Positions 6,661-25,693 of a stretch of DNA of 64,000 nt are shown here, one piece after another. Numbering within the stretch: position 1 is the first letter of the stretch; each line of letters opens with the position of its first letter. The position numbers and the translations under genes are program-made. The DNA comes from an uncultured bacterium. GTDB lineage: Bacteria > Patescibacteriota > Minisyncoccia > Phycocordibacterales > GWA1-40-21. The DNA is taken from assembly GCA_963716205.1 (NCBI GenBank), contig OY970290.1:239417-303416 (forward strand). Reading direction: 5' to 3'. The notes under the pieces are model-generated. The model had not been told where the DNA came from and made no database searches. It saw nothing but the letters and a program-made list of their open reading frames with translations.

Positions 6661-6686
6661 TTTTGTTTGCGCATTCTGAAAAATTT

Positions 6687-7286: not shown

Positions 7287-7328
7287 TAAAAAATAATAAA
7301 CAAAAATCGTTACCAAAGATTTTTATAG

Positions 7329-7402
7329 TGGGCGATACAAGATTCGGACTTGTGACCTCACGAATGTGAATCGTGCGCTCTAACCAACTGAGCTAATCGC
7401 CC
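7329..7402 (-). tRNA. tRNA-Val (anticodon CAC)
   Basis: The reverse complement folds as acceptor gggcgat/atcgccc, anticodon loop ttcacat. The T-loop is tccgaat, with C at position 55. Confidence 0.75.
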
Positions 7403-7504
7403 ATATTATTTTGTGTTTGATTTATAGCATAAAAAAGATTTTTATTCTATTTTTAACTTTGATTTTCTTCATTTTTTATATTACACTCCTTTCACTCAAT
7501 AAAA

Positions 7505-7580
7505 GGGCCGCTAGCTCACTTGGTAGAGCGCTTCCATGGCATGGAAGAGGTAACCGGTTCGATCCCGGTGCGGTCCACCA
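7505..7580 (+). tRNA. tRNA-Ala (anticodon GGC), CCA encoded
   Basis: Acceptor gggccgc/gcggtcc with G3:U70, anticodon loop atggcat, T-loop ttcgatc, and a 3' ACCA. Confidence 0.85.
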
Positions 7581-9066
7581 AAGCCGACGGATTGATCAAA
7601 TATTCCCGATAAACCTCATAAACTGGGCTTAGTTTTGCGGTTCCAAATTTCTCCCCAGAAAATATTATATTTCCATTAAATATCAAGTTTTGGAACCGTA
7701 GTCGCTTTTCAGGTCTTTCATTCAGTCTAAGCCAGGTTTCCGCTGTATTTCTAATGTAGTTAAAGCAGTACTCTAAAGCCTCATCCATATTTAAGCTCTC
7801 GATTTGCTTGTCGAATATTAAAGCTTCTTTCTGAACGATTTTCCGATTAGCAGAATCCTTTTGAGCCAGGAATTCTTCTTTCGTGTAGGTGCCAGATTCA
7901 AAGAGTTCATAAATGTTTTGTCTTCTAATCTCTAGTTCTCCGATTTCTTTTCGTATTTTCCCTTTTAGTTCATCGAATTGCTTGTAATTGTTTTTCCAGA
8001 TATCAACCACGATTGTTTTAAAAGCCTTTTCAAACTGAAACGTTGGATTGATCTCATGTAGATATTCGATGAATAATTGCTCAAACGATTCTTTAGGAAT
8101 GGATTTAGCATAATCGCACTTCTGTTTATGATGGTGATAGTAAGGATATCTGATACCTTTTCGCCCCGTAGAATAGCTGCCGGTAAATGATTGTTCACAG
8201 AATTTGCAGACCGCCAGCTTTCGAAGCGGGAAAGCCGGATTTTTTGCTAAATGTGGCGTGCTTTTGTGTTGTCTTCTTCCCGTTCCCTGGCAGGTGTTGA
8301 AAAGCTTCTCATCAATAATTGGTTCAAACTTTCCCTTTATATCAATGTCCCACACCCGGATAATTCCGCAATAAATTGGATTCTTGATAATCATCTCCAT
8401 GAGTTGTCGTGTAGGAGCGTAGCCATTTCGGGTAGAAAATCCTCGATCCTTCAAGTATTTGGCAAGTGACTTTAAAGTGTGATGGCCCTTAGCAAATTCC
8501 TCAAAAATAAGACGAATATACGGGACATATTTTGGGTCAGGGGTTAGGTTGGCACCCTGGGCCAGGCGATAGTAGCCGAGGGGGGCCGGCCATACCCAAA
8601 TGCCTTTCTTTAAACGCTCCCGCATTCCATTTACACATCTTTCAGTTCGGACGTTGTTATCAAATTCAGCGAATCCCGATAACATAACCTCCATCAGCTT
8701 TCCTGATGGCGTATCGTCTATTTTTTCGGAGACTGAACGAATTTCCGTTCCGTATCCCTGAAGTTTTTGTTTGGTAATCGCGTAATCAGTCTGATTGCGG
8801 GAAAACCGGTCAATCTTGTACACAATAAAGTATTTTATCGTGTTTTTCTTGTTCGAGCAAAAGGCTACTGCCTTTGTGAACTCGGTGCGATCCACAGTTT
8901 TGGCAGACTCTCCACGCTCAATAAATACCTCCGATACGGTTACTCCCTCCCGTACCGCATACTCTTTACACATCCGTTGCTGTGATTCAAGACTCGTACC
9001 ATCTACCTGTTCGAGTGAAGACACCCGACAATAGATTATTCCGTTTTTTGTTTCTCCATTTTGCAC
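7516..9066 (-). CDS. large serine recombinase (integrase), intact; 3' end embedded in tRNA-Ala(GGC)
   Basis: 516 aa with N-terminal IIYCRVSSLEQ (catalytic Ser), a recombinase domain, and a Cys-containing region. The last 21 codons are the antisense of the tRNA-Ala gene. Confidence 0.85.
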   Translation of the reverse strand: MQNGETKNGIIYCRVSSLEQVDGTSLESQQRMCKEYAVREGVTVSEVFIERGESAKTVDRTEFTKAVAFCSNKKNTIKYFIVYKIDRFSRNQTDYAITKQKLQGYGTEIRSVSEKIDDTPSGKLMEVMLSGFAEFDNNVRTERCVNGMRERLKKGIWVWPAPLGYYRLAQGANLTPDPKYVPYIRLIFEEFAKGHHTLKSLAKYLKDRGFSTRNGYAPTRQLMEMIIKNPIYCGIIRVWDIDIKGKFEPIIDEKLFNTCQGTGRRQHKSTPHLAKNPAFPLRKLAVCKFCEQSFTGSYSTGRKGIRYPYYHHHKQKCDYAKSIPKESFEQLFIEYLHEINPTFQFEKAFKTIVVDIWKNNYKQFDELKGKIRKEIGELEIRRQNIYELFESGTYTKEEFLAQKDSANRKIVQKEALIFDKQIESLNMDEALEYCFNYIRNTAETWLRLNERPEKRLRFQNLIFNGNIIFSGEKFGTAKLSPVYEVYREYLINPSALVDRTGIEPVTSSMPWKRSTK

Positions 9067-10965: not shown

Positions 10966-11568
10966 ATGAAAGATATAAAGTCAGAATCCATTTTAGTAAT
11001 GAAAATCGGCTACCATGGAGCCGAAGATATTGACACTATTATTGCGAGAAAAAAAGAAGAAGAAAAAAAATGCGGTCAAACCTATTGGGGTTATGGCGGG
11101 GTATTATGCCACCCAATCCGAGTTGTCCAAAATTTTGCATCGCAAGTCGGAACGAAAAAAATCAAAGTTCTTTTCAGTGTTACCAAATCCCCATTCCAAT
11201 CTGATCCGACGCGAGCAAAATATTTTTCCGAGGACGGAAAAACATGGTCACCATTACATGACAGCGCCAATGTTCTGGCATCAAAATTTGCAATAGTTCT
11301 TCGTTCTCTCAAAGCATGTAAAAAGACAATAGTTCTTAACGATTATTGTGTCCCAATAGGTCCTTCAAAGGGGCGTCCCCTTAACGAATATCTAAGATTT
11401 CGTGTTGATAAAGCGGTCGGAACATTATCGAACAAAAAGAACCTGGGTCCCCTTAAGAGTCTTCCGATCCAGTTTGAGGCTGATTTGGTCCCGCCTTACG
11501 CCATCTTGGTGAGTCACCAGCATCAACCTGAGTCCCATCATCCATCACAAATTTCCCTTCCTTATTGA
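10966..11568 (+). CDS. hypothetical protein
   Basis: 200-aa ORF whose 3' end overlaps the convergent recombinase fusion by 116 nt. Confidence 0.4.
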   Translation: MKDIKSESILVMKIGYHGAEDIDTIIARKKEEEKKCGQTYWGYGGVLCHPIRVVQNFASQVGTKKIKVLFSVTKSPFQSDPTRAKYFSEDGKTWSPLHDSANVLASKFAIVLRSLKACKKTIVLNDYCVPIGPSKGRPLNEYLRFRVDKAVGTLSNKKNLGPLKSLPIQFEADLVPPYAILVSHQHQPESHHPSQISLPY

Positions 11569-13984
11569 TATAAGCTGGAATTTTCCTGTCTTTGCTCCCA
11601 TAGAATTTAGGCATTGCATCATCTTTTATTTTTTGGCCCTCAAAAGGAGCCGGACAATTATAGACACGATCTAAAACAAGATTTGCCGACCGTAAACTAG
11701 GTCGGTCTTCGAGATGATATTGATGAATTTCACGAATCATTTCAGAAACTACATACCCGTGCTTGCATAAAAATTCTTGAATGTTCGCCATTGCTTCTCT
11801 ACTCCAATCTTCCTTATGAGCAAAAGGCAAAATAGCCATTCCCCAACTTGGAGCTGGTTTGCAAAATTCCATGCAACGTCCTAGAAATAGTTTCCCGCAT
11901 TCGCCCTTGTCAACTGATCCATAAGGAGGGTTCGTGTAGAACACTTCATGAGCGCCTTTATATTTTTCAGGGATTGGATCTCGAACATTGTAGCGATGAA
12001 CCGAAATAAGATCGGGAGGAAGGCGCAAGTCGTCGATTACTTGTTCAATAAATGCTAAAAGCCTTTCATCAAAATCGAAAATACGAATTTTGGCCGGTCC
12101 TTTGAAAACATCTCGATTAGCAAGATGCGCAATAACCAAACCCATACAATCGCCATCACCAACAAATGCAACGTCTCTGTATTTCAGATAATCAATTGCT
12201 AAAAGTGCCTGAGTTGCTTGGCTTCCGGGAAGCATAAAGACTTGATCTATTGAACGGATTGGACGTGGTCTATCTGGATGTTGCGTGACCTGTGCAACTA
12301 AATCCACAATAGCCGCATCAGGCCTCACCCCCAGGCTGAGAGCCACGTCTTTTTGCCACAGCCTCAGGTCAAGGCGGCGCTTTCGGATATGGTCCCCAAG
12401 GGTTGTTAGGCTCTTAGGGTAGGCAGGATTTTGTGGTTTTTTGGCCGATAATTGAAAGTTAATGAATGGCAACGCAGGAATGAGGTTGTGTTGCTTTTCA
12501 TTAGTCAATTCAGCGGTCGAGGGAATATAGGCGAGGGATATGGAAATATCATCCGAGCCTATAGTGATCCTATCGGTGATATTCTCGATGATCCGCCGTT
12601 TTTCTTCGAAAACCAGTTCTTTCCATTTGGAATAAAGGTCTTTGGCCTCGGATATGATCTCGTCACTTGAGAGGTATTTGATCTTGAGGAAGTCTATCTC
12701 TCCCTGAAGGTCCGGGAGCTGGGCCTTGACCTTCTCCAAGCGCTCTTCATTTTCCCGGAATTCGGTTCCAAAGGTCTTCACGCTGATCTCGTCGTTGTAA
12801 TAGGCTTTTTTTATCTTGTCCATTTGGCTTTCGATTTTGGCACGCTCTTTCTCAAGCCGCTCTAAGAGTTCCTGCTTTTCCTGAATGACCATATCGGCCC
12901 GTTCAAGGTGCTTGGAAATCTCAACCGGGGAAAAGAAGAAGTTTTTTAATTGTTCATGGAATATGGATTCAAGATCATCCGGGAGTATCTTGTTCCTGCA
13001 TTTGGCACAGGTATATTTCGACGCATTCGGCGGTATGGGCATCTTGCCCCCGCAGTGACAAAAGACGAAGCCGGTGAAAAGATGTGTTGGCCTTTTGGCG
13101 GGTTTCTTACGTTTCGATTCCTGTTCCCTTAAGATAGCGTTGCACTGATCCCACAATTCAGCAGAAACAATGGGCTCTACCTCGACATATTCCCATTCCG
13201 CTTTGGGCTTCATCACCCATGCTTTGCCGTCGCCCAGGCTCTTCGTGTAATTGAGCCGGTGCTTTCCTTTGGCCGTGGGGTCTTGGAGAAGACGGTCAAC
13301 AGTGGTATCGGAAAACTTTGAGCCTTTGCGCGTCCGATATCCCTTGTCATTGAGAATCCGGGCAACAGTTTTCTTGCGGTGATGTTCAAGGAAATATTCA
13401 AAGATGAGTTTTGCAATGGGAACCTCTTTGGGTTCAGGGATGAGTTGTTTGTCTTTCCAGCGATAACCGAAAGGAGCCTGACCGCCAAGGGGTTTGCCGA
13501 GCTTTGCCCGGATGGGGACAGAGGCGGCCACCCGCGAAGCGATTTCTTCCCGTTCCCATTGGGCCATGGCCGCGATCATGGTGTAGAAGAGACGACCAGC
13601 AGGGGTTGAAGTATCGATGGATTCTTGGAGGGAAATTAAATCGGCGTCACTCTCATTGAAGAGGTCGGCGAAATCTAAAAGCTCTCTAGTGTTTCGGGCA
13701 AGGCGAGCAAGTTTCGAGAAGATGAGTCCTGTGATATGGCCGGACTTAATATGCCCAAGCATCTTTTGAGCTTCCGGGTGGGCAATGACTGCTTTGCCGC
13801 TTACTGCCTCTAAGTGATAGACCTCTTTGACATTCCAACCCTTCGACTCTGCATAATACCGCGCCCGTTTCTCATGGTGTTCAGGGCTTTCCCCCCGCGC
13901 CTGATCTTCCGTTGAAACACGAATCCAAATACCGACGTTTTTCTTTCCTTGGTTTTTTTCCACGAGCGCACCTCCACAAATCAA
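11453..13984 (-). CDS. large serine recombinase fused to a C-terminal HTH plus DUF43/BpsA-like SAM-dependent transferase (methyltransferase-like) domain
   Basis: 843 aa with N-terminal IWIRVSTEDQ (catalytic Ser), a recombinase domain, a Cys cluster CHCGG..CAKC, and a coiled coil. After about residue 500 it continues with LGDHIRKRRLDLRLWQKDVALSLGV (HTH-like), VAFVGDGDCMGL (GDGD), and VFYTNPPYG (NPPY). Confidence 0.8.
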   Translation of the reverse strand: MICGGALVEKNQGKKNVGIWIRVSTEDQARGESPEHHEKRARYYAESKGWNVKEVYHLEAVSGKAVIAHPEAQKMLGHIKSGHITGLIFSKLARLARNTRELLDFADLFNESDADLISLQESIDTSTPAGRLFYTMIAAMAQWEREEIASRVAASVPIRAKLGKPLGGQAPFGYRWKDKQLIPEPKEVPIAKLIFEYFLEHHRKKTVARILNDKGYRTRKGSKFSDTTVDRLLQDPTAKGKHRLNYTKSLGDGKAWVMKPKAEWEYVEVEPIVSAELWDQCNAILREQESKRKKPAKRPTHLFTGFVFCHCGGKMPIPPNASKYTCAKCRNKILPDDLESIFHEQLKNFFFSPVEISKHLERADMVIQEKQELLERLEKERAKIESQMDKIKKAYYNDEISVKTFGTEFRENEERLEKVKAQLPDLQGEIDFLKIKYLSSDEIISEAKDLYSKWKELVFEEKRRIIENITDRITIGSDDISISLAYIPSTAELTNEKQHNLIPALPFINFQLSAKKPQNPAYPKSLTTLGDHIRKRRLDLRLWQKDVALSLGVRPDAAIVDLVAQVTQHPDRPRPIRSIDQVFMLPGSQATQALLAIDYLKYRDVAFVGDGDCMGLVIAHLANRDVFKGPAKIRIFDFDERLLAFIEQVIDDLRLPPDLISVHRYNVRDPIPEKYKGAHEVFYTNPPYGSVDKGECGKLFLGRCMEFCKPAPSWGMAILPFAHKEDWSREAMANIQEFLCKHGYVVSEMIREIHQYHLEDRPSLRSANLVLDRVYNCPAPFEGQKIKDDAMPKFYGSKDRKIPAYINKEGKFVMDDGTQVDAGDSPRWRKAGPNQPQTGSEDS

Positions 13985-14447: not shown

Positions 14448-14879
14448 GTGGATACGCTCACCCAGTTCATCACCGGGAAAGGCTACAGCGTCCGCGTCGG
14501 CATGACCCCTTCTGAAGATATCTACGGCTATGTCAATGACAAGAAGGAGATCGTGCTCAAGGAGGGCGAGAGTTCCGACCATCAAGCTTTGGTTCTAGCT
14601 CATGAAATGTCGCACGCCCTTCTCGGTCATGTCGGTTCTTTCCAGAATCAAGCGGAGAAGGAACTTGAAGCCGAAACGTCTGCCTGGATCATTTGCCGCA
14701 ATCTCGGATTGCGGACTAATGAAACAAGTTTTGCTTACTTGGCAACATGGGCAAGCGGGCCGGAACAAGAAAAGAAGTTGGAAAAGGCCGCTTCTCGTGC
14801 CTGTCAGGTGGCGCAACTAATTTTGGAAGGTCTGGAAGCAATGAAGCAGATTTCCAGCCAGAAAGGAGAAATGGTATGA
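14448..14879 (+). CDS. HExxH metallopeptidase-like protein (ImmA/IrrE- or ArdC-C-terminal-like)
   Basis: LVLAHEMSHALLGH motif. GTG start. Its stop overlaps the next start (ATGA). Confidence 0.5.
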   Translation: MDTLTQFITGKGYSVRVGMTPSEDIYGYVNDKKEIVLKEGESSDHQALVLAHEMSHALLGHVGSFQNQAEKELEAETSAWIICRNLGLRTNETSFAYLATWASGPEQEKKLEKAASRACQVAQLILEGLEAMKQISSQKGEMV

Positions 14880-15145: not shown

Positions 15146-15164
15146 GAATTCCAATTCCTAGCAA

Positions 15165-15198
15165 AGCCCTATCGACAATCGATAGGGCTTTTTTTTTA
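15165..15198 (+). terminator. rho-independent terminator
   Basis: Hairpin agccctatcga-caa-tcgatagggct followed by ttttttttt. Confidence 0.8.
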
Positions 15199-15294
15199 CT
15201 TATCTCTGATTTTTTATTTTATAGAAATTCTGTTATAGTTAATCCGTAGTTGTGTCCGAGTTGGTTTGAAATCCCAAGTCAAGAAACTCCAAAT

Positions 15295-16317
15295 ATGAAA
15301 AATTATTTTTATTACAAAGATAAAAAAAAAGTCCTACCTGTTTTAGGTGAGGAAAAAAATAAACTGGCAAAAAAGAAACTCGACCACATTCTTAAGACCA
15401 AAAAGGAATTAATACCAGAACACTTTATCGAAAGGTGGTCAGAGGTGGCATTGTATAATCCTGGCGGTGATGTTGAAAAAGCAAATGCCATTTTGATCAA
15501 TCCGGAAGACGGCGCTTACGATCTATCGAACCCACTCAACGACATGACAGGAAAAGAATGGGTAAAGTTCAGTTGCAGTTGGTTTATTTTTAATGCTCTG
15601 CACAAAGACTTAAAGGAAGAGAGAGAAGTATCTCCAAATACTCAGGATCATCCAGCGACATTTTCTCCGACAATGATTGAGGGGTTTGTGAAATTCTTTA
15701 CAAAAAAGGGAGAAAACGTACTCGATCCTTTTTGCGGCATTGGAAGCACTATGGTTGCCTGCAAACGAACCGGAAGAGTCGGCTATGGTATTGAGCTTAA
15801 TAAAAAATATTATGATCTGTCGCTCAAGCGAACTCCGGAATTCAAAAAGACCATATTCAACGAAAATGCGGCCAATATCAAAAAACTGAATCTGCCAAAG
15901 ATTGCTTTTTCGATTTCATCGCCTCCGTACTGGGACATGCTTAACCGAAGTACCAAAGACTTCAAAAAGGATAGAACGAAAGACGGTTTCGATGTTAACT
16001 ATTCCGAAGCCGAAGAGGACTTGGGTAATATTGATAACTACGATCTGTTTTTGGAAAAATTAGCAAATATATATTTTGACATATTTGATCTACTCAAAGC
16101 CGGAGGGTATCTCGTGGTCATTGTGAAGAACCTTAAGAAAGAGGGTAAAATGTATCCATTGGCGTGGGACTTGGCTCGGCTTCTCTCGAAGAAGTATATG
16201 CTCAAAGATGAGAAGCTTTGGATACAAGACAAAGTCGGTCTTGCCCCCTACGGATACCCTTCAGCGTGGGCAAGCAACATACTGCATCATTACTGTTTAG
16301 TTTTTCAAAAGAAATAA
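15295..16317 (+). CDS. DNA methyltransferase (N4-cytosine/N6-adenine family, SPPY motif IV)
   Basis: Motif X/I HPATFSP..VLDPFCGIGST is followed by motif IV SISSPPYW. It overlaps or abuts the next MTase. Confidence 0.8.
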   Translation: MKNYFYYKDKKKVLPVLGEEKNKLAKKKLDHILKTKKELIPEHFIERWSEVALYNPGGDVEKANAILINPEDGAYDLSNPLNDMTGKEWVKFSCSWFIFNALHKDLKEEREVSPNTQDHPATFSPTMIEGFVKFFTKKGENVLDPFCGIGSTMVACKRTGRVGYGIELNKKYYDLSLKRTPEFKKTIFNENAANIKKLNLPKIAFSISSPPYWDMLNRSTKDFKKDRTKDGFDVNYSEAEEDLGNIDNYDLFLEKLANIYFDIFDLLKAGGYLVVIVKNLKKEGKMYPLAWDLARLLSKKYMLKDEKLWIQDKVGLAPYGYPSAWASNILHHYCLVFQKK

Positions 16318-16318
16318 C

Positions 16319-17947
16319 ATGTCTTTAACCATTTCACAAATTGTAAAAAACCTTGTCGATGTAAACGATATCAAACACGATCGGCAGTATTCGCGCGTGG
16401 CGAAACTTCATAAATATTGGTCAAGAAAACCTTGGTTTGTTATCGATCAATACATTGAGAAATATTCCAAAAAGGATCACGTCGTTTTGGACCCGTTTTG
16501 TGGTAGCGGAATTATTGGACTGCAATCAGTTTTAGCCAATAGAAATTTCATCGGTTACGACCTGAATCCTTTCGCTGTCTTTCTCGCAAAGAACTCTTTG
16601 CAGGTCGGTTATGACAACGCCTCTTTTGAAGAGGACTTCTCAGCGATTGAGCGGGCTGTTCGGGAGGAAATAATGCCTCTCTATGCGACCAAAGACAAAT
16701 ATATTCTGTATACCATTCTTGGAAAGAAAAATAGTAAGGACTATAACGCTGTCATCGCTGACAGTAATTTCCACAACAAGCAAAAAGTTAGTCTCTCTCA
16801 AGAATATCTAAATCCAATCATAAAATTTCCTAAGAACTTGAAGTATCCAGACAAGGACTTTCCAGAGAAATTTTATAAAGATCGTTTTTCTTATAAGGGT
16901 GTGAAGCGAGTGTCAGACATGTTCACCAAGAGGAACCTTCTTGCTTTGGCAACACTTCATATGGCTATCAACAAATTGCCTCTAAAAAACAGAGATTTGT
17001 TCATGCTTGCATTTACGAACACCCTATTGCATGTAAGTAAATTAAAAGCAGAAAATGTGCGGCCTCTTGGTGTAAATAACTTTTGGATTCCGGATGATTT
17101 TATTGAAGAGAATGTCTGGTGGAGGTTTGTAGACCGAGTCAATAATGTAAAAATGGCAAAGGAAGTTATTGCAGACAAGGCTTCCCGAAACGAGGTCTCG
17201 AAGCCTGTCTCTAAGATTTATAACAAGTCGTCTTTGAAGATGATTGAAATTAAGCCGGGTAGTGTTGACTATTTGATTACCGATCCTCCATACGGCGACA
17301 CCATCCAATACTCAGAGCTTTCATACATCTGGAATTGCTGGCTTGAGAAAGAGTTTGAGATTGAGAATGAAGTCATTATAAACCCTGTGCAAAAAAAGGG
17401 AGTGAACGAATACTACGATCAGCTCGCTACTTTTATCCGCGAAGCGAAAAGGGTTCTCAAAAAAGACGCTTACTTTACACTTGCATTCCACAACAAGGAT
17501 TTGAAAATTTGGATTAGCCTTGCCGAATTAATAAGAGATCATGGAATGGAATTGGTAGACATCTCTTCCTACGACACCTTCGGCAGTCCTTACAATAAAA
17601 ATTGGGCAAAATTTTCGCCCAAATCTGACTTCTATGTGACCTTTATAAATTCGAAAAATAAAGCAAGGGTTAAAAATAAAAAAGTTATCTATCCCAATGA
17701 TATTGCAGATGAGATCGTCAAATGCCTTGGCAAAAACAATGGCAAACTTTTTAATCTGAATAAGGCGTATGATCTGTTCGTAAGCGTAGTTATAAGTAAA
17801 ATATTTGATGGGTCGCAAGTCATTGAACACGAACGACTAAGTATTGAGAACATTATGAATCTTTTTCAGAACGTTCCACGAGATGAGAAGCATGGTAAGA
17901 AAAAGGAAACTGTTCAGATAAGTTTATTTGAACTACAACATGTTTAA
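16319..17947 (+). CDS. DNA methyltransferase (N6-adenine type, DPPY motif IV)
   Basis: N-terminal HKYWSRKP..VLDPFCGSGIIG (motif X/I) and LITDPPYGD (motif IV). 542 aa. Confidence 0.8.
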   Translation: MSLTISQIVKNLVDVNDIKHDRQYSRVAKLHKYWSRKPWFVIDQYIEKYSKKDHVVLDPFCGSGIIGLQSVLANRNFIGYDLNPFAVFLAKNSLQVGYDNASFEEDFSAIERAVREEIMPLYATKDKYILYTILGKKNSKDYNAVIADSNFHNKQKVSLSQEYLNPIIKFPKNLKYPDKDFPEKFYKDRFSYKGVKRVSDMFTKRNLLALATLHMAINKLPLKNRDLFMLAFTNTLLHVSKLKAENVRPLGVNNFWIPDDFIEENVWWRFVDRVNNVKMAKEVIADKASRNEVSKPVSKIYNKSSLKMIEIKPGSVDYLITDPPYGDTIQYSELSYIWNCWLEKEFEIENEVIINPVQKKGVNEYYDQLATFIREAKRVLKKDAYFTLAFHNKDLKIWISLAELIRDHGMELVDISSYDTFGSPYNKNWAKFSPKSDFYVTFINSKNKARVKNKKVIYPNDIADEIVKCLGKNNGKLFNLNKAYDLFVSVVISKIFDGSQVIEHERLSIENIMNLFQNVPRDEKHGKKKETVQISLFELQHV

Positions 17948-19034
17948 TCATATGGAAATATACAAAAAAGATTTTTTTAACATATTCAAAGCCAACTTTG
18001 ATTTCAAGATTGTTGAAACTGAAATGGGGCTGGCAGTCAAAATGCCCGCAAAGGAAGCTTTTATTTACAGCAGTATTACCGGTGCCGGGTACTTTGAAAA
18101 TCCAATCTATCCTTTTACCCCAAAAGGTCTGATGAAGCTTTTCTATAATGCATTCACCTATAAGTTCGTATCAGGTATTTTTGATAACGGTGTCCTCAAA
18201 AATACGCCGTACATTCTGTCGAAAGCAAAGAAGTATTTGTTTGAGGGCGATAAATATGTTGTCCCTATTGAATTTGAATCAGAAGAAAAATTGATCAATC
18301 TGCTCAAGGAAAAGTTTGATCATATTAAAAACCCAGAAAATTACATTATTCAGCGCATTGAGACAAGCAAGCAAGGCAACGGAATGGAACCATTCATGGA
18401 ATACCTTGCAGGCGAGTCTTTCCGACATCTTGGCTTCATTGTAGAGAATCAAATACCTCTTGCCCATGCAGTCGGCTCTCCGGATTTTGCTGGGTACGGT
18501 TTAAGTGACCTCATAATCAAGATAAGCGATTACGGATACCTATCAAGCGCCGGTTTTCACATGATTGAGTTGGCTCTCATTAGAAACTTTAAACAAGGGC
18601 CAAAGAACGAGAGTCACCATGTCACTCACGACTTTATTGTCGGTGAAGCAAAGACTGGGAGTCTGATCATGACCAAACAGTTGGAAAAATATCTCAATAC
18701 CGGACTATTTGATCAGGGATTTGAGATTCACCCTGCAAAGGCCAAGCCCTCAAAAGATTACTTCGGTTTGATCAGTTTGGATTCTGATTTCAAAATAAAA
18801 ATCACTCTCCCTGTAACTAAGCATACGGCGGAGAATCCGCTGTCACGGGAAGAGTATGCGATATGGCTTGGTAACTACATTAAGTTTTATCTAATTTCAA
18901 ATTTCACAAACGATGAGCTTAAGCAATTTTACATTGAACAGGAAGGTGAAGAGATAAATAAAGAGTCTGATCTTGTTAGTTTCGTCTTGGGGTTGGAGAC
19001 TGAAACAATTCTAGCAAAAATTAAATCCCTATAA
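17928..19034 (+). CDS. hypothetical protein, candidate PD-(D/E)xK nuclease (possible restriction component)
   Basis: 368 aa. E..SPDFAGYG...IVGEAKTG resembles the E/PD/ExK triad. It overlaps the MTase stop by 20 nt. Confidence 0.5.
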   Translation: MNYNMFNHMEIYKKDFFNIFKANFDFKIVETEMGLAVKMPAKEAFIYSSITGAGYFENPIYPFTPKGLMKLFYNAFTYKFVSGIFDNGVLKNTPYILSKAKKYLFEGDKYVVPIEFESEEKLINLLKEKFDHIKNPENYIIQRIETSKQGNGMEPFMEYLAGESFRHLGFIVENQIPLAHAVGSPDFAGYGLSDLIIKISDYGYLSSAGFHMIELALIRNFKQGPKNESHHVTHDFIVGEAKTGSLIMTKQLEKYLNTGLFDQGFEIHPAKAKPSKDYFGLISLDSDFKIKITLPVTKHTAENPLSREEYAIWLGNYIKFYLISNFTNDELKQFYIEQEGEEINKESDLVSFVLGLETETILAKIKSL

Positions 19035-19035
19035 T

Positions 19036-20049
19036 ATGGCATACTCCAGCGACGAAATTATTAAAAGAGAGATTCTAGATACCCTTGGTTATGAAACCAA
19101 TGGGATTAAACTTCGCATCTTTCCACAAAGCAGTAACGAAGATCAAAAGCCATTTTCAGAGGGCGGTCTTACTTTTGGGTTTAAAGGTGTTTCTTATGGT
19201 TCGTGTGATGCCGCATGGTATGTGGACGAAAAATGGGTAGACGGATTGAATGGCAAAGAAATAAACAAAAAGCCAGTGATTGCACTCGAAGGTACTGATG
19301 CTTTAAGTAGGAACTCGGCAGGCAATGCTCTCTATCAGCGATTTCATCATGCACTCGGTGGGGTAAAAAACGGCATCATTGGTGTTTATTATTTGAAAAA
19401 AGGCACTCAAAAAATCCAGCCAGACCTCTACGGCATGGCCTACTTTGCATCTAAGGTGGAAAAAGGAAAATATCTAATCACAGATGATCTCTCCGTCGTT
19501 AAGGATTTGCTGGATCGCTATCACAAACCCGCAGAATTTTCTGCTTACGTCAAAGCTTATTTGGAAAAGATGCACAAGATTTTTATAACTAAATTCAATG
19601 CCGCCTATGGTGGAGATTGGAAAAGGTTTGCAGAGCATCGATCGACAATCATACAAAACGACTACGTTATTAAATATGCTGGCCGAATGAGAAGAAATTT
19701 CACTGACGGATCACAGCGTGCAGGGCATATTGCTGTCGGTGAGATGTTTCTTACCAAATACTATTTTTACGATAAAATGTTTTACTATCTTTTTCCGAAA
19801 ATGACACATAATGATTTGGAGGTTCTTGATCACAATAAAACCACGGACAAAGAGTGGTTCCTTTTGCGAAATGAGCCTAACGTTGAAATAAAGACTATGG
19901 ACGATATTGCCGGACTTAGTCAGTCAACCCGAGAAGCGCTTTTGAGTATCCAAGATACCCCTCTCAAGGGAGAGGCTATGCGCACTTTTAATAAATGCAT
20001 GAAAACCATTGTCGAGGGATTTAAGTCTGGCAAGTTGAAGCTGAAATAA
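19036..20049 (+). CDS. hypothetical protein (operon partner)
   Basis: 337-aa ORF tightly packed between neighbours. No motif is recognised. Confidence 0.5.
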   Translation: MAYSSDEIIKREILDTLGYETNGIKLRIFPQSSNEDQKPFSEGGLTFGFKGVSYGSCDAAWYVDEKWVDGLNGKEINKKPVIALEGTDALSRNSAGNALYQRFHHALGGVKNGIIGVYYLKKGTQKIQPDLYGMAYFASKVEKGKYLITDDLSVVKDLLDRYHKPAEFSAYVKAYLEKMHKIFITKFNAAYGGDWKRFAEHRSTIIQNDYVIKYAGRMRRNFTDGSQRAGHIAVGEMFLTKYYFYDKMFYYLFPKMTHNDLEVLDHNKTTDKEWFLLRNEPNVEIKTMDDIAGLSQSTREALLSIQDTPLKGEAMRTFNKCMKTIVEGFKSGKLKLK

Positions 20050-20072
20050 TTGTAAAGTTAGTACGAAATCCT

Positions 20073-22451
20073 ATGAAAATTCGTAAAATCAAATCGATAA
20101 AGAACTACAAATCATTTACGGATTTTGAGTGGCAAAAGTTTTGCAAGAATAAAGATGGCCAAGAATCCATACTACAAAATTTTACTACTATTTTTGGCGA
20201 GAACGGATCAGGAAAATCTTCCGTCTGTGATATTTTAAAAAGCGTTTCTCAGTATCAGGACTTTCAAAATACTCCACCGGCTTTGACCGAAATAGAGCTG
20301 AATGATGGTAGTAATAATCAAATTCATAAATATGAAAACGGGGGATGGCTAACCCAAGTCGAGAAAAATTCGTTTCTATTTTTCGATGTTGATTTTATCA
20401 ATGCGAATGTTCATACACATGGTATTAGGTCAAGTAATCAGCAACAAGGCGCGCACACACAAAAAGCGGGTAAGCTAATAATTGATTTAGATGAACAGGC
20501 GAACAGTCTCAAAGAGATAGTTAAGACAAACCAAGACGCATTGGAAACACAAAAGATTATTAGCAAAGATATCTTAGGACAATCATTTACAGATAAAGAT
20601 AAAGAACTTTTCGAAATATATAAGGATGATGATGAAAAAACAAAACAAGAAAAACTTTCCAAAGCAGAAGAAGAACTAAAAACACTTGAAGAGGGATTAA
20701 CAAACCTTGAAAAGGTTAATAAAAAGTATAACGAAATAAATCTCATATCGGCAGTTGATCAAATAGCATTTTCTAATGATTTTTCTTCAAAAGAATTTTT
20801 CACTGAATTGTTTACCCGTCAAATAAAAGAAAAGGCACAAGATGATGCAGACGAGAAGATAAAAACGCATTTTGCAAAGCACAAACAGTTTATTGAGTCC
20901 GCCAAAGACCAAATACCCGAAAAATACAGCGACGAAAACTGTCCCCTTTGTATGCAACCGCTCAAAAACGCTATAAAAGTTATTGAGTACTACAGAACCG
21001 TCTTTGATCAAACCTATGAAAATGCTAAACAAAAATTTTTGGCCGACATTGAAACCGCAAAAAGCGAATTGGAAATAATAAAGTCAAACCTGAATTTATT
21101 GCCCTCTAAGGCAAATGAAGTATTTGACGCACTGGAAAAAATAAAAACAGATTTTGAAATCAAAGACATTTACAAGCTTGATGAAAAAACAAAATATACT
21201 GAAAAGTTTAGTGGTATTACCATAAAAGAAATTGATGATTCGCTCATGGCGTTAGAATCTCTGAAAAAAATTGAACGAAAGCAAGTGGAAATAGCAAATC
21301 TCTATGACGTGATCGCCGCAAAGCTTGTAAAAATCGTAAAATCAGTTGAGGGCATCAACGAACTTATTGCCGAAAAAAATAAATTGATAAGTGATTTCAA
21401 AAGTAAATATTCTGATCAAACCAAAATCACGGATGAACTACAGGAGAAAAATAAAAAGCAAATAGACTTGAACCAGTTAGTAGATTTTTTGAAAAGCGAA
21501 AAAATAAAACTCATAAAACTTCAAAACGATGCTTCTGCCAAAGAGAAAACATTATCGGAAAAATTGAAAAAGACACAGGAGGATTTGAAAACATATCTTG
21601 CCAAAACAATTCCAGAGAGTGTTATTTCACAAATGATAATTATTCTTAATAAGTTTAATTTGGGCTTCACCCTTGAACATATCAAACCCGCAGCCAATAC
21701 AAAGGAATATTCTTTTTCGTTCAAAATTACTGATCTAAAAGGAAATGAACGAGAAATGAAGGATGGATTATCAGAAGGTGAGAGACAGCTAATTTCTCTT
21801 GCCTTCTTCTTTGCGATTAATGAAAATTTGCAGAGCAAGGATCAAACCGTCTTAATTTTTGATGATCCGATAACAAGCTTAGACTCGCCAAACTTAAAAA
21901 TTCTTGCAGAGTTGATACACAAGGAGACTCAGGAATTTTCTCAGGTTATAGTTTTTACTCACCATCCACTATTTTTTAAGTATTTAGCAAAATGTGTAAA
22001 TCCAAATCCAAGCAAGTTTGGCGTTTTAAAGAATGTAGAAAAATTCGGTGGAAGTTTTATCTTTGTTGACCCTGGATTTGATTTGACCTCTGAAATCCAA
22101 AAATGCAATCAAGAAATTACTCAAAATGCCAAAAACGGTGATCTAAAACCAGAGGAAATTGCCTTAAAATATGGACAACTTTTACGATTGGCAGTTGAAA
22201 AATTTATCAAAAATGACTTACTGATGTGGGATAAGGAAAATAACTTTGATGGCATAACAGAAAATTTGAAACAAGGAAAAAATAAAATAGCTAAACTTTC
22301 CGATGACGATTTGGAAGTGATAACAAATATGTATAAATATTGTAATTACTCCAATCTCTTACACGCTGATAAGGAAACACCTTCCGCACTTTCTGAACTA
22401 ATGACACACATTGATAAATTTGATCAAATCTTGGATAAAGTGAAGGTTTAA
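20073..22451 (+). CDS. Rad50/RloC-like ABC-type ATPase with coiled coil and CxxC hook; putative abortive-infection/anticodon-nuclease-type defence protein
   Basis: Walker A FGENGSGKSS and about 450 aa of predicted coiled coil containing DENCPLCMQPL. The ABC signature is LSEGERQLISLAFFFA, Walker B is VLIFDDPITSLD, and the H-loop is VIVFTHH. A roughly 110-aa C-terminal domain follows. Confidence 0.65.
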   Translation: MKIRKIKSIKNYKSFTDFEWQKFCKNKDGQESILQNFTTIFGENGSGKSSVCDILKSVSQYQDFQNTPPALTEIELNDGSNNQIHKYENGGWLTQVEKNSFLFFDVDFINANVHTHGIRSSNQQQGAHTQKAGKLIIDLDEQANSLKEIVKTNQDALETQKIISKDILGQSFTDKDKELFEIYKDDDEKTKQEKLSKAEEELKTLEEGLTNLEKVNKKYNEINLISAVDQIAFSNDFSSKEFFTELFTRQIKEKAQDDADEKIKTHFAKHKQFIESAKDQIPEKYSDENCPLCMQPLKNAIKVIEYYRTVFDQTYENAKQKFLADIETAKSELEIIKSNLNLLPSKANEVFDALEKIKTDFEIKDIYKLDEKTKYTEKFSGITIKEIDDSLMALESLKKIERKQVEIANLYDVIAAKLVKIVKSVEGINELIAEKNKLISDFKSKYSDQTKITDELQEKNKKQIDLNQLVDFLKSEKIKLIKLQNDASAKEKTLSEKLKKTQEDLKTYLAKTIPESVISQMIIILNKFNLGFTLEHIKPAANTKEYSFSFKITDLKGNEREMKDGLSEGERQLISLAFFFAINENLQSKDQTVLIFDDPITSLDSPNLKILAELIHKETQEFSQVIVFTHHPLFFKYLAKCVNPNPSKFGVLKNVEKFGGSFIFVDPGFDLTSEIQKCNQEITQNAKNGDLKPEEIALKYGQLLRLAVEKFIKNDLLMWDKENNFDGITENLKQGKNKIAKLSDDDLEVITNMYKYCNYSNLLHADKETPSALSELMTHIDKFDQILDKVKV

Positions 22452-22496
22452 TAATGGCCTTAGACTGTCACACTTTTGGAGCGGCGTTTACACATC

Positions 22497-22800
22497 AAGC
22501 AACCGATTTTTCTTTTTCAGGAAAGTCAGGTATGTTTAAAGAGACGTGAAATTCCCAGAATTCCCTAAGACTTTTGAAAATTAGGTTCCAATTCTGTAAG
22601 GTGTGGTCCACTCTGGTGAACATTGGAGGCAGAAATGCCTCTTTTGTCTTTTAAAGATTAGCTATCTTGATGGTTTAAAGAAAAAATTTTTCTAAAAAAC
22701 AGACGGCTCTAATTATGGATAGAAATTAATGACCCAAGGCGACTCGAACCGATAACGAAAGTTAGCTGTATTTTGTTTCTTTCGTTCATACCAGACCTCC
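22497..22800 (+). repeat. composite repeat copy C (left arm ccgatttttctttttcaggaaa..gtgaaattcc, M1 22584-22611, hairpin M2 22626-22656, inverted T-arm-like M3 about 22704-22790)
   Basis: About 80% identical to copy D over about 280 bp. M2 and the flank also match the sequence downstream of tRNA-Ala(TGC). Confidence 0.8.
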
Positions 22801-22855
22801 CATCATTGACAAATCCCTACTAAATGTAATCATTCCTTTATTAATAAAACTAATC

Positions 22856-23881
22856 ATGGAAGGAAAAACTCATTTTGAAAATATTGTAGGTGGAACACAA
22901 GAAGAGAAAAATGAGATTTTGTATGAATTACAAAAGACTTTTGAAACTCGTTCAGAAAAGCTTACAAAATATGAACTAGAAAAAACTATAGAAGATATAG
23001 GGCTTATTAAAAATACGGAATTGGTTGTAGATAAAATTGTGAGTCAATATGGAGGCAAACCGAAATCAATATCACTTGATCATATATATATCCTCAAGCC
23101 GGGGTCGGTGCTCGAAATGACCGAGGGAAAATTAGCAAGGGGTCTTCACCAGCCAGTAGGGCTTAATATTGGTGTTGAGAAGAAAGAATCAAAATTATTA
23201 TTTGCAAGTACTATTGCACATGAACTTTTTCATCTGAAATCTTACAAATCTGCACGTAAAGGAGAATCGGTTGATGACATAAGATTATACAGAACTGGAC
23301 TTTCAATGATTGACATCAAGGATGAGTCAAAAAAGGCTGGCGAAGAAAAAGAATATTTTTCTCAACTAGAGGAAGCTGTTGTGGTTGAATGCACTAGAAA
23401 ATTTCTTGATAACATCAGTATGGATAAGGAATTTAGACCAGAAACAGAGGCAATTAAAAAAATCAAAAATTGGGTTACTGAATTTTATAAAAGACGAGGA
23501 ATATCTCAAGATAAAATAGAAGAATTTAATGATGAGATAAAATATATATCAGATCCAGAGAAGTGGGTTTCGGACGTAGAAAATGCATACACTGAAGAAA
23601 ATAGAAAGCAGGCATATGCAGCAGGAATGTTTGAGTCACTTTATAAAAATGGTTCCGCAGAATCTATGGAAAGATATACAGAAAGAAAAAAACTATATGA
23701 TCTTCTTGATAAATTAGTTTTAGAATCCAATAGAAAATATAAAAATCGTAATGAATTATTTGACGAGTTTGCAAAAGCAAATTTTTCTGGTAATTATCTG
23801 CCGTTGGCGAAAATAATTGAGAGTATTTTAGGAAAAGGGTCATTCAGAAAAATAGCAGAAGATTTTAGTAATAAATCTTAA
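22856..23881 (+). CDS. hypothetical HExxH-motif protein (putative metallopeptidase)
   Basis: 341 aa with IAHELFH and no signal peptide. A cassette-like ORF between repeats C and D. Confidence 0.5.
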   Translation: MEGKTHFENIVGGTQEEKNEILYELQKTFETRSEKLTKYELEKTIEDIGLIKNTELVVDKIVSQYGGKPKSISLDHIYILKPGSVLEMTEGKLARGLHQPVGLNIGVEKKESKLLFASTIAHELFHLKSYKSARKGESVDDIRLYRTGLSMIDIKDESKKAGEEKEYFSQLEEAVVVECTRKFLDNISMDKEFRPETEAIKKIKNWVTEFYKRRGISQDKIEEFNDEIKYISDPEKWVSDVENAYTEENRKQAYAAGMFESLYKNGSAESMERYTERKKLYDLLDKLVLESNRKYKNRNELFDEFAKANFSGNYLPLAKIIESILGKGSFRKIAEDFSNKS

Positions 23882-23892
23882 AACATAATGAT

Positions 23893-24170
23893 TAAGCAGC
23901 CGATTTTTCTTTTTCAGGAAAATCTGGTATGTCTACAGAATCGTGAAATTCCTGGAATGCCTTGATGCTCTCGTATATTTGATTCCAATTTCGTAAGATG
24001 AGGTCCACCCAAGCTGACAAAAGAGGCAGAAATGCCTCTTTTGTCTTGTAAGGGCTAGCTATCTTGGTATTTCCAAAATAATTTTTCTCTAAATATCCAA
24101 CGGCTCTAATTATGGATATAGATTAATGACCCTACACGACTCGAACCAATTTTGATAATTTTTTAGACAG
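23893..24170 (+). repeat. composite repeat copy D (left arm, M1 23981-24008, hairpin M2 24023-24053, M3 about 24101-24165)
   Basis: See copy C. M1 is gattccaatttcgtaagatgaggtccac. Confidence 0.8.
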
Positions 24171-24236
24171 TGTTACGCTATAGGAACAGATGTTATTTTT
24201 AGTTTTGGTATGAATCAGTATTAATTAAATAATAAA

Positions 24237-25283
24237 ATGTTCAATTTTTTACATAAAATTATATCAGCCATAGGTACTGCGATTGTTTCCGTAGGATTGC
24301 TTTTCACTGGGACGCACATATCAACCAAAATTCCTAATACACCTCTCGTAAGTACTTCCACTTCCCAAGTTGAAGTTGTAAGCACAAGCACAATAGTAAA
24401 TACAGGTTCTATAACTAAACCTTCTCCAGTTCAAACACCAACAATTGTGCAACCTCTAATCGTCTCTTGCAGTGCAGATATGGCAAATGCTTCTCCCGGA
24501 CAAACTATTATATGGACTGCACAAACATCAGGAGGTAATGGTAGTCATTCTTATACTTGGGCAGGGGATGGCGGTTTATCTAGTACCAATCAATCGCCAA
24601 CTATTTCCTGGTCATATAATTCTACGGGGATTATGAATGCGAGAGTGAGTGTGACTTCTGGAACACAAACAGTGAATGCTAACTGTAAAAATTCTGTTAT
24701 AGTCACTCAAGTAGAATCAGCACAAAACAATAATCAGAATCAAGTCCAAGCTCAAACAAATTCTCAAGAACAAGCTATCCAAAGTGTTATCACTGCTTAT
24801 ACACAAAAAGAAGGATCTATTCAGCAAGAAATTGATGATGTGCAAGGTCAAATGCAAGAATCACAAAATAATAATTGTTCTAATAATATTGGAGAAGGTG
24901 AGGGCGCACTTGAATGCACTGCAAGTGCTGAAGAGATAACAGCCAATGAAAGTTATGTTAGTAATTTACAGACACAAAATGGAATTTTACAAAAAGTTCA
25001 AGTAGAATTACAAAATGATATTTCCCAGGAGGTATCTCTGACTCAAGATCAGATTGATTCATATATGCAAAATATAACTATTCTTGGTCAAATTGATACA
25101 CTTGAACAACAAATCACTGCATTAAAAATAAAAAGTATCGGTGAGATAATGGGATATGAAACAAGTGGAGGTACAGAAGCTGTTGCTGAAGGTGAAGCAA
25201 ATTTGATAACGACACAAGAAAATGCACAGATTGATTCATTAAATTCACAGATTCAGGTTTTAGCTGCTGAACTGGTTCAATAA
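24237..25283 (+). CDS. hypothetical secreted/membrane-anchored protein with a PKD-like beta domain and a Q/N-rich coiled-coil tail
   Basis: N-terminal TM or signal segment, a Cys-bounded beta domain (CSADMANASPGQTIIWTAQTSGG...NC), and a glutamine-rich C-terminus. Confidence 0.5.
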   Translation: MFNFLHKIISAIGTAIVSVGLLFTGTHISTKIPNTPLVSTSTSQVEVVSTSTIVNTGSITKPSPVQTPTIVQPLIVSCSADMANASPGQTIIWTAQTSGGNGSHSYTWAGDGGLSSTNQSPTISWSYNSTGIMNARVSVTSGTQTVNANCKNSVIVTQVESAQNNNQNQVQAQTNSQEQAIQSVITAYTQKEGSIQQEIDDVQGQMQESQNNNCSNNIGEGEGALECTASAEEITANESYVSNLQTQNGILQKVQVELQNDISQEVSLTQDQIDSYMQNITILGQIDTLEQQITALKIKSIGEIMGYETSGGTEAVAEGEANLITTQENAQIDSLNSQIQVLAAELVQ

Positions 25284-25319
25284 AAATTGGCTCAAGAAGC
25301 TAGTTAATCTTCAAGGGAA

Positions 25320-25390
25320 CTATGAAATTCCCAGAACGCCTCTAGGCTTTCGTATATTGGGTTCCAATTCCGTATAATGAGGTCCACCAA
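25320..25390 (+). repeat. partial composite repeat copy E (gaaattcccagaa... plus M1 ggttccaattccgtataatgaggtccac)
   Basis: Matches the left arm and M1 of copies C and D but lacks M2 and M3. It lies 80 bp upstream of tRNA-Ala(CGC). Confidence 0.65.
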
Positions 25391-25466
25391 CGACGATGAA
25401 TTTTGTAAGACAAGGTCCACACAGAGTTTTTTATTTTATCGGAATATGTTAGAGTAGCAAACGCCT

Positions 25467-25537
25467 GGGCCTATAGTATAGTGGTAGCACGCGTCATTCG
25501 CATTGACGAGACGGCAGTCCGATTCTGCCTAGGTCCA
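25467..25537 (+). tRNA. tRNA-Ala (anticodon CGC)
   Basis: Acceptor gggccta/taggtcc with G3:U70, anticodon loop ttcgcat. The T-loop is tccgatt, with C at position 55. Confidence 0.7.
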
Positions 25538-25575
25538 CAAAAGCAGAAAATCTAAACTGCTTGATAAATAAATTT

Positions 25576-25647
25576 CGGAGCGTGGTGTAACGGTAACATG
25601 CATGATTCGGGTTCATGTGACTCCGGGTTCAAATCCCGGCGCTCCGA
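25576..25647 (+). tRNA. tRNA-Pro (anticodon CGG)
   Basis: Acceptor cggagcg/cgctccg, anticodon loop ttcgggt, T-loop ttcaaat. Confidence 0.8.
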
Positions 25648-25693
25648 CAAATGATTTTCAAATTTGGAAAAAATCCTGTATAATCACACAGAG

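Follow-up and report, generated by a model that had tools for sequence, protein, structure and literature searches.

The window analysed here is a 64,000-nucleotide (nt) stretch of contig OY970290.1 from an uncultured patescibacterium, in which an earlier note, made from the sequence alone, had proposed a composite restriction/abortive-infection system. Its plus strand carries, between positions 15295 and 22451, five consecutive co-oriented open reading frames (ORFs), which encode two DNA methyltransferases (MTases; M1 and M2), two putative nuclease subunits (X and Y) and an ATPase resembling the RloC anticodon nucleases (Table 1). As described in the earlier note, these packed ORFs follow a strong intrinsic terminator; the overlaps of 2-20 nt reported there are replaced, once the starts supported by homologues are used, by spacers of 1, 4, 1 and 23 nt. 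The apparent 20-nt overlap arose because the third ORF was read from a TTG at 17928, a start that was dropped in favor of the ATG at 17952, where homology to X begins at both the protein and the DNA level (DNA similarity resumes at 17951) and from which homologues of 360 amino acids (aa) are read. A TTG at 15250 was likewise rejected as the start of M1 for the ATG at 15295, where homology begins and from whose first residue the homologues align.

The terminator (hairpin 15163-15191) marks the end of the upstream unit and the left edge of the cassette formed by the first four genes, and the weak hairpin downstream of the ATPase gene is a possible end of the transcription unit. No terminator-like site was detected on the plus strand between 15200 and 22600, and the search for an internal promoter between Y and the ATPase gene gave only a 9/12 promoter-like match, located inside Y and below the level of shuffled sequence. 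Given the 23-nt spacer and the lack of a predicted terminator between them, co-transcription of Y and the ATPase gene is plausible. The G+C content (GC) is 0.389 in the first four genes, 0.328 in the ATPase gene, 0.47 upstream and 0.41 in the window as a whole.

Table 1. Features of the window, genes found 3' of Y in other cassette loci, and restriction-modification (R-M) contexts of the ATPase clade (T4SS, type IV secretion system)
Feature	Sequence	Position	Strand	Details
M1, 340-aa DNA MTase	window	15295..16317	+	PF01555 E 1.5e-22; PADLOC MTase_II PDLC03391 E 1.2e-33
M2, 542-aa DNA MTase	window	16319..17947	+	PF01555 E 4.4e-19; PADLOC MTase_II PDLC03319 E 1.5e-45
X, 360-aa putative nuclease subunit	window	17952..19034	+	PD-Xn-EXK site; predicted fold
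Y, 337-aa putative nuclease subunit	window	19036..20049	+	BsmI-like predicted fold, non-canonical site
RloC-like ABC-ATPase, candidate anticodon nuclease, 792 aa	window	20073..22451	+	PF13166 AAA_13 E 3.2e-28
Intrinsic terminator	window	15163..15200	+	hairpin 15163-15191; 13-bp stem, 6 G-C pairs, 3-nt loop, T-run
Weak terminator-like hairpin 3' of ATPase gene	window	22625..22650	+	7-bp stem, 4 G-C pairs, T-rich tail
Large serine recombinase, 843 aa	window	11453-13984	-	Resolvase E 2.5e-29, Recombinase E 2.1e-20
143-aa ORF	window	14448-14879	+	weak match to M78 peptidases of ImmA/IrrE type, E 3.3e-6
341-aa ORF, no convincing family	window	22856-23881	+	marginal BPTD_3080 restriction endonuclease match, E 1.3e-3
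348-aa ORF, no convincing family	window	24237-25283	+	weak PKD-domain matches, Q/N-rich tail
tRNA-Ala(cgc)	window	25467-25538		
tRNA-Pro(cgg)	window	25576-25648		
Ppl-like PHP+ABC protein after Y	L006; L010 (also L011)	4880-7669; 11019-13901		
PD-Lambda-5_A after Y	L007	11063-12469		
GHKL/paraMORC-like ATPase after Y	L014	11033-12592		
OLD/GajA-like protein after Y	L023	11000-13589		
GmrSD after Y	L024	9189-11087		
NYN RNase after Y	L004	11105-11602		
Unmatched 1156-aa protein after Y	L013	11034-14504		
622-aa protein without family, then 783-aa AAA_13 protein	L001-L003	11233-15507		deltaproteobacterial loci
R-M context of ATPase	window			M1-M2-X-Y cassette, then ATPase
R-M context of ATPase	JGI 3300047160			Type I, hsdM-gene-hsdS...hsdR
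R-M context of ATPase	L052			Type I, hsdM-hsdS-gene-hsdR
R-M context of ATPase	L050			C5 MTase, HinP1I, Vsr
R-M context of ATPase	L087			DpnII and two MTases
R-M context of ATPase	L049			MutH/Sau3AI-like nuclease and C5 MTase
R-M context of ATPase	L083			PLD/NgoFVII-like nuclease and two MTases
R-M context of ATPase	L086			AlwI-like Type IIS enzyme and two MTases; RhuM gene upstream
R-M context of ATPase	L047			C-protein/MTase/300-aa/MTase locus
R-M context of ATPase	L046			EcoRI-type methylase and GmrSD_N-HNH
R-M context of ATPase	L053			MmeI-like enzyme
R-M context of ATPase	L055			Type IIG-like enzyme and S subunit

The four-gene cassette and its putative nuclease subunits

Scanning a single genome of each species for relatives of Y yielded 39 loci, in which the first four genes of the window recur as a unit. 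M1, M2, X and Y are all present in each of the 32 loci long enough to show four genes, the other seven being truncated at contig ends or, for L041, having no M2 match; 31 of the 32 are contiguous, and the remaining one (L029) has its two MTase genes diverging from X-Y. M1-M2-X-Y is the prevailing order, with X-Y-M1-M2 in L033, L035-37 and L039, and in all orders X lies directly 5' of Y at a distance of 1-30 nt, including the loci in which the MTase pair is moved or inverted. Such an arrangement is far beyond chance. Nucleotide similarity between the closest loci and the window starts at 15289-15296 and stops at 20003-20056, with none further out, which places the edges of the cassette at 15291 and 20054 and encloses four genes in 4.76 kb. 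The window's ATPase is not found 3' of Y in any of the 39 loci, including those whose proteins are 80-94% identical to those of the window.

The hosts comprise Saccharibacteria and other Patescibacteria, metagenome-assembled genomes (MAGs) labeled as Gammaproteobacteria, Omnitrophota, Verrucomicrobia, Caldilinea (Chloroflexota), Bacteroidota (with a cultured carrier, Pedobacter cryophilus AR-3-17, locus L028, whose cassette lies within NZ_SWBP01000001.1 69951-90934), Gastranaerophilales, Elusimicrobiota and the DPANN archaea Pacearchaeota/Nanoarchaeota. In a Humimicrobiaceae MAG the cassette resides on a ParAB/T4SS conjugative element, and a deltaproteobacterial copy adjoins excisionase and integrase remnants. 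M1-M2-X-Y is a self-contained mobile cassette that does not include the ATPase.

Both MTases passed profile searches with PF01555 and match many PADLOC Type II MTase models, one of which, PDLC03319, covers M2 end to end (model positions 1-497/503). Motif I lies upstream of motif IV in both proteins: in M1, VLDPFCGIGST (aa 142-152; DPFCGIGST, aa 144-152, at nt 15724-15750) is followed by SSPPY (aa 208-212, nt 15916-15930), and in M2, VLDPFCGSG (aa 56-64; DPFCGSG, aa 58-64, at nt 16490-16510) is separated from TDPPY (aa 321-325, nt 17279-17293) by a long insert, the probable target-recognition region. These motifs, which the earlier note had already picked out, are the best-conserved stretches of the two proteins, across 37 homologues of M1 and 31 of M2. 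SPPY is typical of N4-cytosine MTases and DPPY of N6-adenine MTases. Judging by its motif, M2 is probably of the N6-adenine type, and M1, by its SPPY and by the precedent of BsrDI, whose MTases are one N6-adenine and one N4-cytosine enzyme (PMC1950550), is probably of the N4-cytosine type; the two distinct methylation specificities or strands that had been suggested agree with two amino-MTases of different type, one with SPPY and one with DPPY. The middle region of M2 also gives a partial match to PADLOC PglXI (7.4e-46) and a match to the NCBIfam anti-phage family DUF1156 (5.9e-13) that falls far under that model's cut-off.

Searches of Pfam, NCBIfam, PADLOC and PDB with X and Y, whether by individual sequence or by profile, matched no family; an antibody, a lipoxygenase and PDC-M45C came up as stray weak matches. 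The families of X and Y (321 and 514 homologues retrieved, respectively) are called 'hypothetical' in every source that names a member. The AlphaFold model of X, based on a 37-homologue alignment (pLDDT 91.6), has a restriction-endonuclease-like PD-(D/E)XK core, and its predicted site (S-P177-D178-F at nt 18477-18488 and V-G-E232-A-K234 at nt 18639-18653) has P177-D178 and E232-A-K234 invariant in 37 sequences. The PD/EAK arrangement that had been taken as compatible with a restriction nuclease thus falls, with invariant D178, E232 and K234, within a predicted fold of that kind.

The model of Y, from a 34-homologue alignment (pLDDT 92.9), points to a specific relative. Foldseek returned four chains of BsmI as the sole matches at E<=1e-3, with probability 1.00, the next match being a subunit of the heterodimeric BbvCI (E 0.07), and two methods single out BsmI as the structural likeness of Y, with a sequence identity of about 10-12% in the structural alignments. 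BsmI, a monomer of the Type IIS class, carries two active sites (PMC11889245): an N-terminal, EcoRI-like bottom-strand site (D9, D91, E109) with the non-canonical motif PD-Xn-E-X12-QR (R123), and a C-terminal, FokI-like top-strand site of the PD-Xn-EXK type (E470, D528, E546) (PMC11889245, PMC1950550). As modeled, Y is similar to the N-terminal and the central portion of this monomer. Its invariant residues are D6 in the N-terminal helix, C-D58, E85 and Q101-R102, and they form the putative site D6 / D58-X26-E85-X15-Q101-R102 (nt 19045-19059, 19201-19212, 19285-19299 and 19333-19350), to be set beside the published bottom-strand (Cb) motif (P/A/F)D-X13-18-E-X12-QR (PMC1950550). Because the order D6, D58, E85, Q101-R102 parallels D9, D91, E109, Q-R123 of BsmI, because X has a canonical site, and because the combined length of X and Y (360 + 337 = 697 aa) is close to that of BsmI (667-676 aa), the two proteins can be read as the halves of a split BsmI-like enzyme. 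In both BsrDI and BtsI, these two site types reside on separate subunits, accompanied by two amino-MTases (PMC1950550). By analogy, we propose that Y is the recognition and bottom-strand (Cb-type, EcoRI-like) subunit and X the top-strand (Ct-type, FokI-like) subunit.

The gene that begins 10-60 nt past Y differs in almost every lineage, and the 3' flank of the cassette is accordingly a variable slot collecting defense genes. In the three deltaproteobacterial loci, the cassette seems to have been joined to an AAA_13 gene a second time and independently, as no tblastn match of at least 50 bits is listed between their 783-aa AAA_13 protein and the window's ATPase.

The RloC-like ATPase and its genomic contexts

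In addition to AAA_13, the 792-aa ATPase matches SMC_N (PF02463) and AAA_21 (PF13304). Among PADLOC models it matches PDC-S06, a candidate family without known mechanism (PDLC04895 at E 3.5e-30, spanning aa 4-632, plus nine other PDC-S06 models), as well as mad3, LmuB (7e-13) and, marginally, mad8 (E 1.7e-4); no named RloC model was matched in this library, and PDB sequences gave Rad50/SMC heads only. RloC is defined by ABC motifs, a coiled-coil/zinc-hook insert with CXXC and a C-terminal Arg-X3-Glu-X36-52-His triad, represented in GkaRloC by K44, C291 (hook), D572 and R692/E696/H737 (PMC2610378, PMC3458546). The window's protein displays a Walker A motif (GENGSGKS, aa 42-49, nt 20196-20219) separated by about 515 aa from the signature (LSEGER, aa 566-571), which is followed by Walker B (IFDDP, aa 595-599), SLD (602-604) and the switch histidines H630-H631; a CPLC zinc hook (aa 290-293, nt 20940-20951) lies in between, and R705-X3-E709 (nt 22185-22199) and H764 (nt 22356-22370) lie within the last ~150 residues. 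The ABC motifs, C290-P-L-C293 and R705/E709/H764 are all invariant in 27 orthologues. Leu, not Ser, precedes H764 (see the comparison in PMC2610378). More than 180 homologues were found, those among the 120 listed being about 790 aa long and 59-79% identical and coming from bacteria and archaea, and homologues of 64-73% identity carry the JGI annotation 'wobble nucleotide-excising tRNase'. By its motifs, apart from a triad spacing two residues beyond the published range, the protein fits the RloC family and is a putative anticodon nuclease, in line with the RloC/PrrC likeness noticed earlier.

A metagenome scan gave at least nine close loci, to which nine exact-protein look-ups were added, and the survey covers 16 distinct contexts of relatives that are 41-79% identical to the window's ATPase; the weakest four (L052, L053, L055 and L056, 41-53% identical) comprise three R-M-linked contexts and one unlinked. 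In 12 of the 16 the ATPase gene is located directly 3' of or within an R-M locus on the same strand, with a gap of 0-20 nt in most and of 131 nt in L049. The partners are of at least ten kinds (Table 1), and some relatives are placed between hsdM/hsdS and hsdR, as prrC is. R-M genes were not seen in the other four contexts, namely L045/L085, the T4SS elements L048/L084, L051 and L056.

A small PF01555 MTase (244-264 aa) stands directly 5' of the RloC-like gene in L083 (5255-5989), L086 (5196-5990) and L087 (5256-5999), where it closes a two-MTase Type II system; DpnA closes DpnII systems in like manner. At L047 a similar 260-aa PF01555 MTase (4218-5000) forms the 5' end of the R-M block, and it is a D12-class MTase that lies ahead of the ATPase. 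It may be that the RloC-like ATPase and the small MTase move as a pair.

The proposed two-module organization and the alternative explanations

Taken together, these observations make it likely that the locus consists of two adjacent, independently mobile modules, namely a split BsmI-like Type IIT/IIS R-M cassette and an RloC-family gene. The composite system of the earlier note therefore survives in part: restriction and a probable abortive layer are indicated by the R-M cassette and by the RloC motifs, but a single five-gene machine is not, given that conservation extends over four genes and that the ATPase clade follows unrelated R-M systems elsewhere. The checks it had proposed gave Type II MTase models for M1 and M2, PDC-S06 for the ATPase and none for X and Y in PADLOC, no sequence family, housekeeping or other, for the ORFs at 17928 and 19036, and confident structural models with predicted nuclease folds for both of the latter. 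Its view of the layout as outside the textbooks did not hold, as two MTases with two different nuclease subunits have been published as the Type IIT/IIS arrangement found in BsrDI and BtsI (PMC1950550). The fourth ORF, which has a BsmI-like model and is proposed here as the second subunit of the nuclease, had been listed there simply as an unknown protein.

With respect to mechanism, we infer that the first module (15295-20049) would act as a heterodimeric Type IIT/IIS R-M cassette, in which M1 and M2 would each methylate one strand of an asymmetric recognition site, and the X-Y heterodimer would cut unmodified DNA at or close to that site. By the precedent of BsmI, BsrDI and BtsI, each subunit would cut one strand: Y, bound to the recognition site, would use its non-canonical D...E...QR site to nick one strand, and X would nick the other with its canonical PD...EXK, FokI-like site. 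The second module (20073-22451) would, if it behaves like the characterized RloC, encode a latent tRNase, switched on by ATP and DNA ends or by restriction failure; once activated, it would excise the wobble nucleotide of a tRNA and halt translation, providing a second, abortive layer. In GkaRloC, the zinc hook silences the nuclease, whereas ATP and DNA activate it, linear DNA most effectively by a wide margin (PMC3458546). That the clade has such varied R-M partners speaks against a specific silencing contact of the PrrC-EcoprrI type, which is unlikely because these partners are unrelated enzymes; a common cue like DNA ends, or plain co-transfer and co-expression, is, speculatively, the likelier form of coupling. 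Conceivably, the clade is a general restriction guardian placed 3' of almost any R-M operon, be it Type I, II, IIS, IIL or the window's Type IIT cassette, sensing the DNA ends that restriction makes or their absence once it is blocked, with X/Y as an unrecognized and widely transferred split BsmI-type family; the unrelatedness of the partners implies that such a guardian would sense a common product and not the R-M enzyme itself, but we regard this extension of the two-module proposal as doubtful.

Several observations weigh against the two-module proposal in its details. The correspondence between the residues of Y and BsmI is drawn from their order and from modeled secondary structure, and the spacings in Y (X26 and X15) exceed the published X13-18 and X12 (PMC1950550). 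HMMER searches with X and Y against PDB recovered neither BsmI nor any nuclease at E<=10. A HMMER search of 1.84 billion representatives with the Y profile matched 116 proteins, all of <=400 aa, with no X-Y-fused or BsmI-length relative among them; for lack of such a sequence bridge, the link between Y and BsmI is structural only. In the ATPase, the spacing within the triad is X54 where X36-52 is published, the AAA_13 match does not reach the putative nuclease domain, ending at aa 648, and a canonical HEPN motif (R-X4-6-H) is not obvious near H764.

The alternatives differ in which part of the proposal they contest. A single integrated five-part system, in which the ATPase is an indispensable subunit or regulator of the nuclease, on the model of McrB with McrC or of LlaJI R1 with R2, and restriction needs ATP hydrolysis, could draw on the shared strand, the 23-nt spacer, the lack of a predicted terminator between Y and the ATPase and the partial PADLOC matches to components of MADS (methylation-associated defense system), mad2 for M1/M2 and mad3 for the ATPase. 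Yet all 39 cassette loci are without the ATPase, DNA similarity stops at 20054, the clade is found behind ten or more unrelated R-M systems and in some cases behind none, GC falls from 0.389 in the cassette to 0.328 in the ATPase gene, and no MADS model other than these is matched in the five proteins except for the marginal mad8 (E 1.7e-4), so that such integration appears very improbable. It is less strained, albeit still unlikely, that X and Y do not form a heterodimer, one of them being a full enzyme (as a homodimer or transient dimer) and the other a nickase, a factor for specificity or control, or an independent second nuclease: each is large enough for a self-sufficient Type II enzyme, and the large subunits of BsrDI and BtsI nick unaided (PMC1950550). 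Against this stand the strict co-inheritance of X and Y, in fixed order and with a 1-30 nt gap despite rearrangement of the MTases, the complementary types of their putative sites, which fit the BsmI/BsrDI/BtsI scheme (PMC1950550), and the asymmetric recognition site that two MTases imply, ill-suited to a homodimer.

Equally modest is the chance that the ATPase is not an anticodon nuclease but a DNA-directed SMC/Rad50-like effector or sensor of the LmuB (Lamassu) or PDC-S06 kind, its C-terminal domain serving another function. The best library matches (PDC-S06 at 3.5e-30, mad3, and LmuB at 7e-13, with no named RloC model), the end of AAA_13 at aa 648, the restriction of PDB matches to Rad50/SMC heads and the X54 triad would agree with this; however, the full RloC motif set is invariant, with R-X3-E and His in a C-terminal domain of ~150 aa, size and motif positions are nearly those of GkaRloC (PMC2610378, PMC3458546), close homologues are annotated as wobble nucleotide-excising tRNase, and the R-M-embedded contexts, including hsdM-gene-hsdS, are like those from which the rlo genes take their name. 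Hardly credible is a different methylation-based defense system of the BREX-like or DUF1156 type, with a PglX-like M2 and with X and Y as accessory proteins, for which the matches of the M2 center to PglXI and, far under cut-off, to DUF1156 might be cited: PglZ, BrxC, BrxL and helicase models are unmatched in the seven proteins of 15295-25283, M2 aligns from end to end with PDLC03319, an ordinary Type II MTase model, and X and Y have predicted nuclease folds with intact, invariant catalytic residues. MADS, BREX/PglX and DUF1156 identities were all dropped, the other defining genes not being matched; for MADS in particular, X, Y and the neighboring ORFs match no mad model, and only the partial mad2/mad3 and marginal mad8 matches occur.

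The surroundings of the two modules suggest that both reside on an integrated island, since a serine recombinase gene and two tRNA genes bound a stretch of low GC (0.33-0.39, 15200-25460) that runs from the terminator at 15163 to the tRNA pair. The recombinase itself carries a C-terminal domain similar to BpsA_C (branched-chain polyamine synthase; E 1.8e-24, aa 571-765), an unusual fusion. ImmA/IrrE-type genes, to which one of the flanking ORFs shows a weak match, are often found in regulatory modules of mobile elements.

These findings leave current concepts in place, as every component is of a known kind; what is new is the recognition of two unannotated nuclease families as a putative split, equal-subunit, structurally BsmI-like enzyme and of an unusually consistent R-M linkage of an RloC clade. 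Because X and Y have no Pfam, NCBIfam or PADLOC model and are named 'hypothetical' everywhere, standard pipelines would see two orphan methyltransferases and miss the whole restriction system; R-M barriers limit genetic tractability in the carrier groups, including Patescibacteria, DPANN archaea and Bacteroidota. Commercial nicking enzymes derive from BsmI-family enzymes. If our reading of X and Y is true, a naturally split enzyme with one site per subunit could yield top- and bottom-strand nickases of new specificity without engineering, and single-subunit mutants of X/Y could provide new strand-specific nicking enzymes with a new specificity. If the clade did act as a guardian, DNA cleavage would be directly coupled to translational shut-off. 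The locus adds a Type II case to the pairing of R-M with anticodon nucleases known from PrrC, and, judging from the contexts surveyed, R-M linkage seems far more frequent in one RloC clade than the literature has for RloC overall.

Comparison with known systems

As is proposed for the cassette, BsrDI and BtsI (Xu et al. 2007, PMC1950550) combine two amino-MTases with two nuclease genes, the canonical PD-Xn-EXK and the D...E...QR sites being on separate subunits, so that either subunit would be expected to cut a single strand of an asymmetric site. Their nucleases consist of a large and a small subunit (the small BtsI ORF has 495 bp), whereas X and Y are nearly equal (360 and 337 aa), share no detectable sequence similarity with them and show, in Y, D-X26-E-X15-QR instead of D-X13-18-E-X12-QR; unlike the PD-EXK subunit of BsrDI/BtsI, X bears additional domains at its N and C termini. 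BsmI, Mva1269I and BsrI each unite two active sites in a Type IIS monomer (PMC11889245), and BsmI strings Cb, central and Ct parts together in a single chain, as opposed to the two genes of the cassette, in which the Ct-type X precedes the Cb-type Y.

As for the ATPase, RloC of G. kaustophilus and Acinetobacter baylyi likewise has about 800 aa, a split ABC head, a CXXC hook and a C-terminal triad (PMC2610378, PMC3458546, PMC3874168), the triad of the window's protein differing in its X54 spacing, and the motifs of the window's protein lie a few to 27 residues off those of GkaRloC. R-M linkage of RloC has been described as occurring 'rarely', in 8/72 cases and with Type I or III systems (PMC2610378, PMC3458546, PMC3874168), in contrast to 12/16, mostly with Type II, in the window's clade; the survey of ABC-HEPN proteins in R-M operons (Anantharaman et al. 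2013, PMC3710099) does not have this cassette or a split-BsmI-like pairing. The association of RloC with R-M is thus known in outline, and its breadth and strength in this clade, together with the Type II pairing, are a refinement. PrrC is about half the size of RloC (PMC2610378), has no coiled-coil/zinc hook and always accompanies Type Ic systems; the 792-aa size, the CXXC insert and the Type II neighborhood of the window's ATPase do not fit PrrC. The PrrC-EcoprrI pair of E. coli shares the two-layer logic, an R-M system beside a latent ABC-ATPase/tRNase, and differs in that PrrC is silenced by direct contact with the Type Ic proteins, whereas the partners of the window's clade are diverse.

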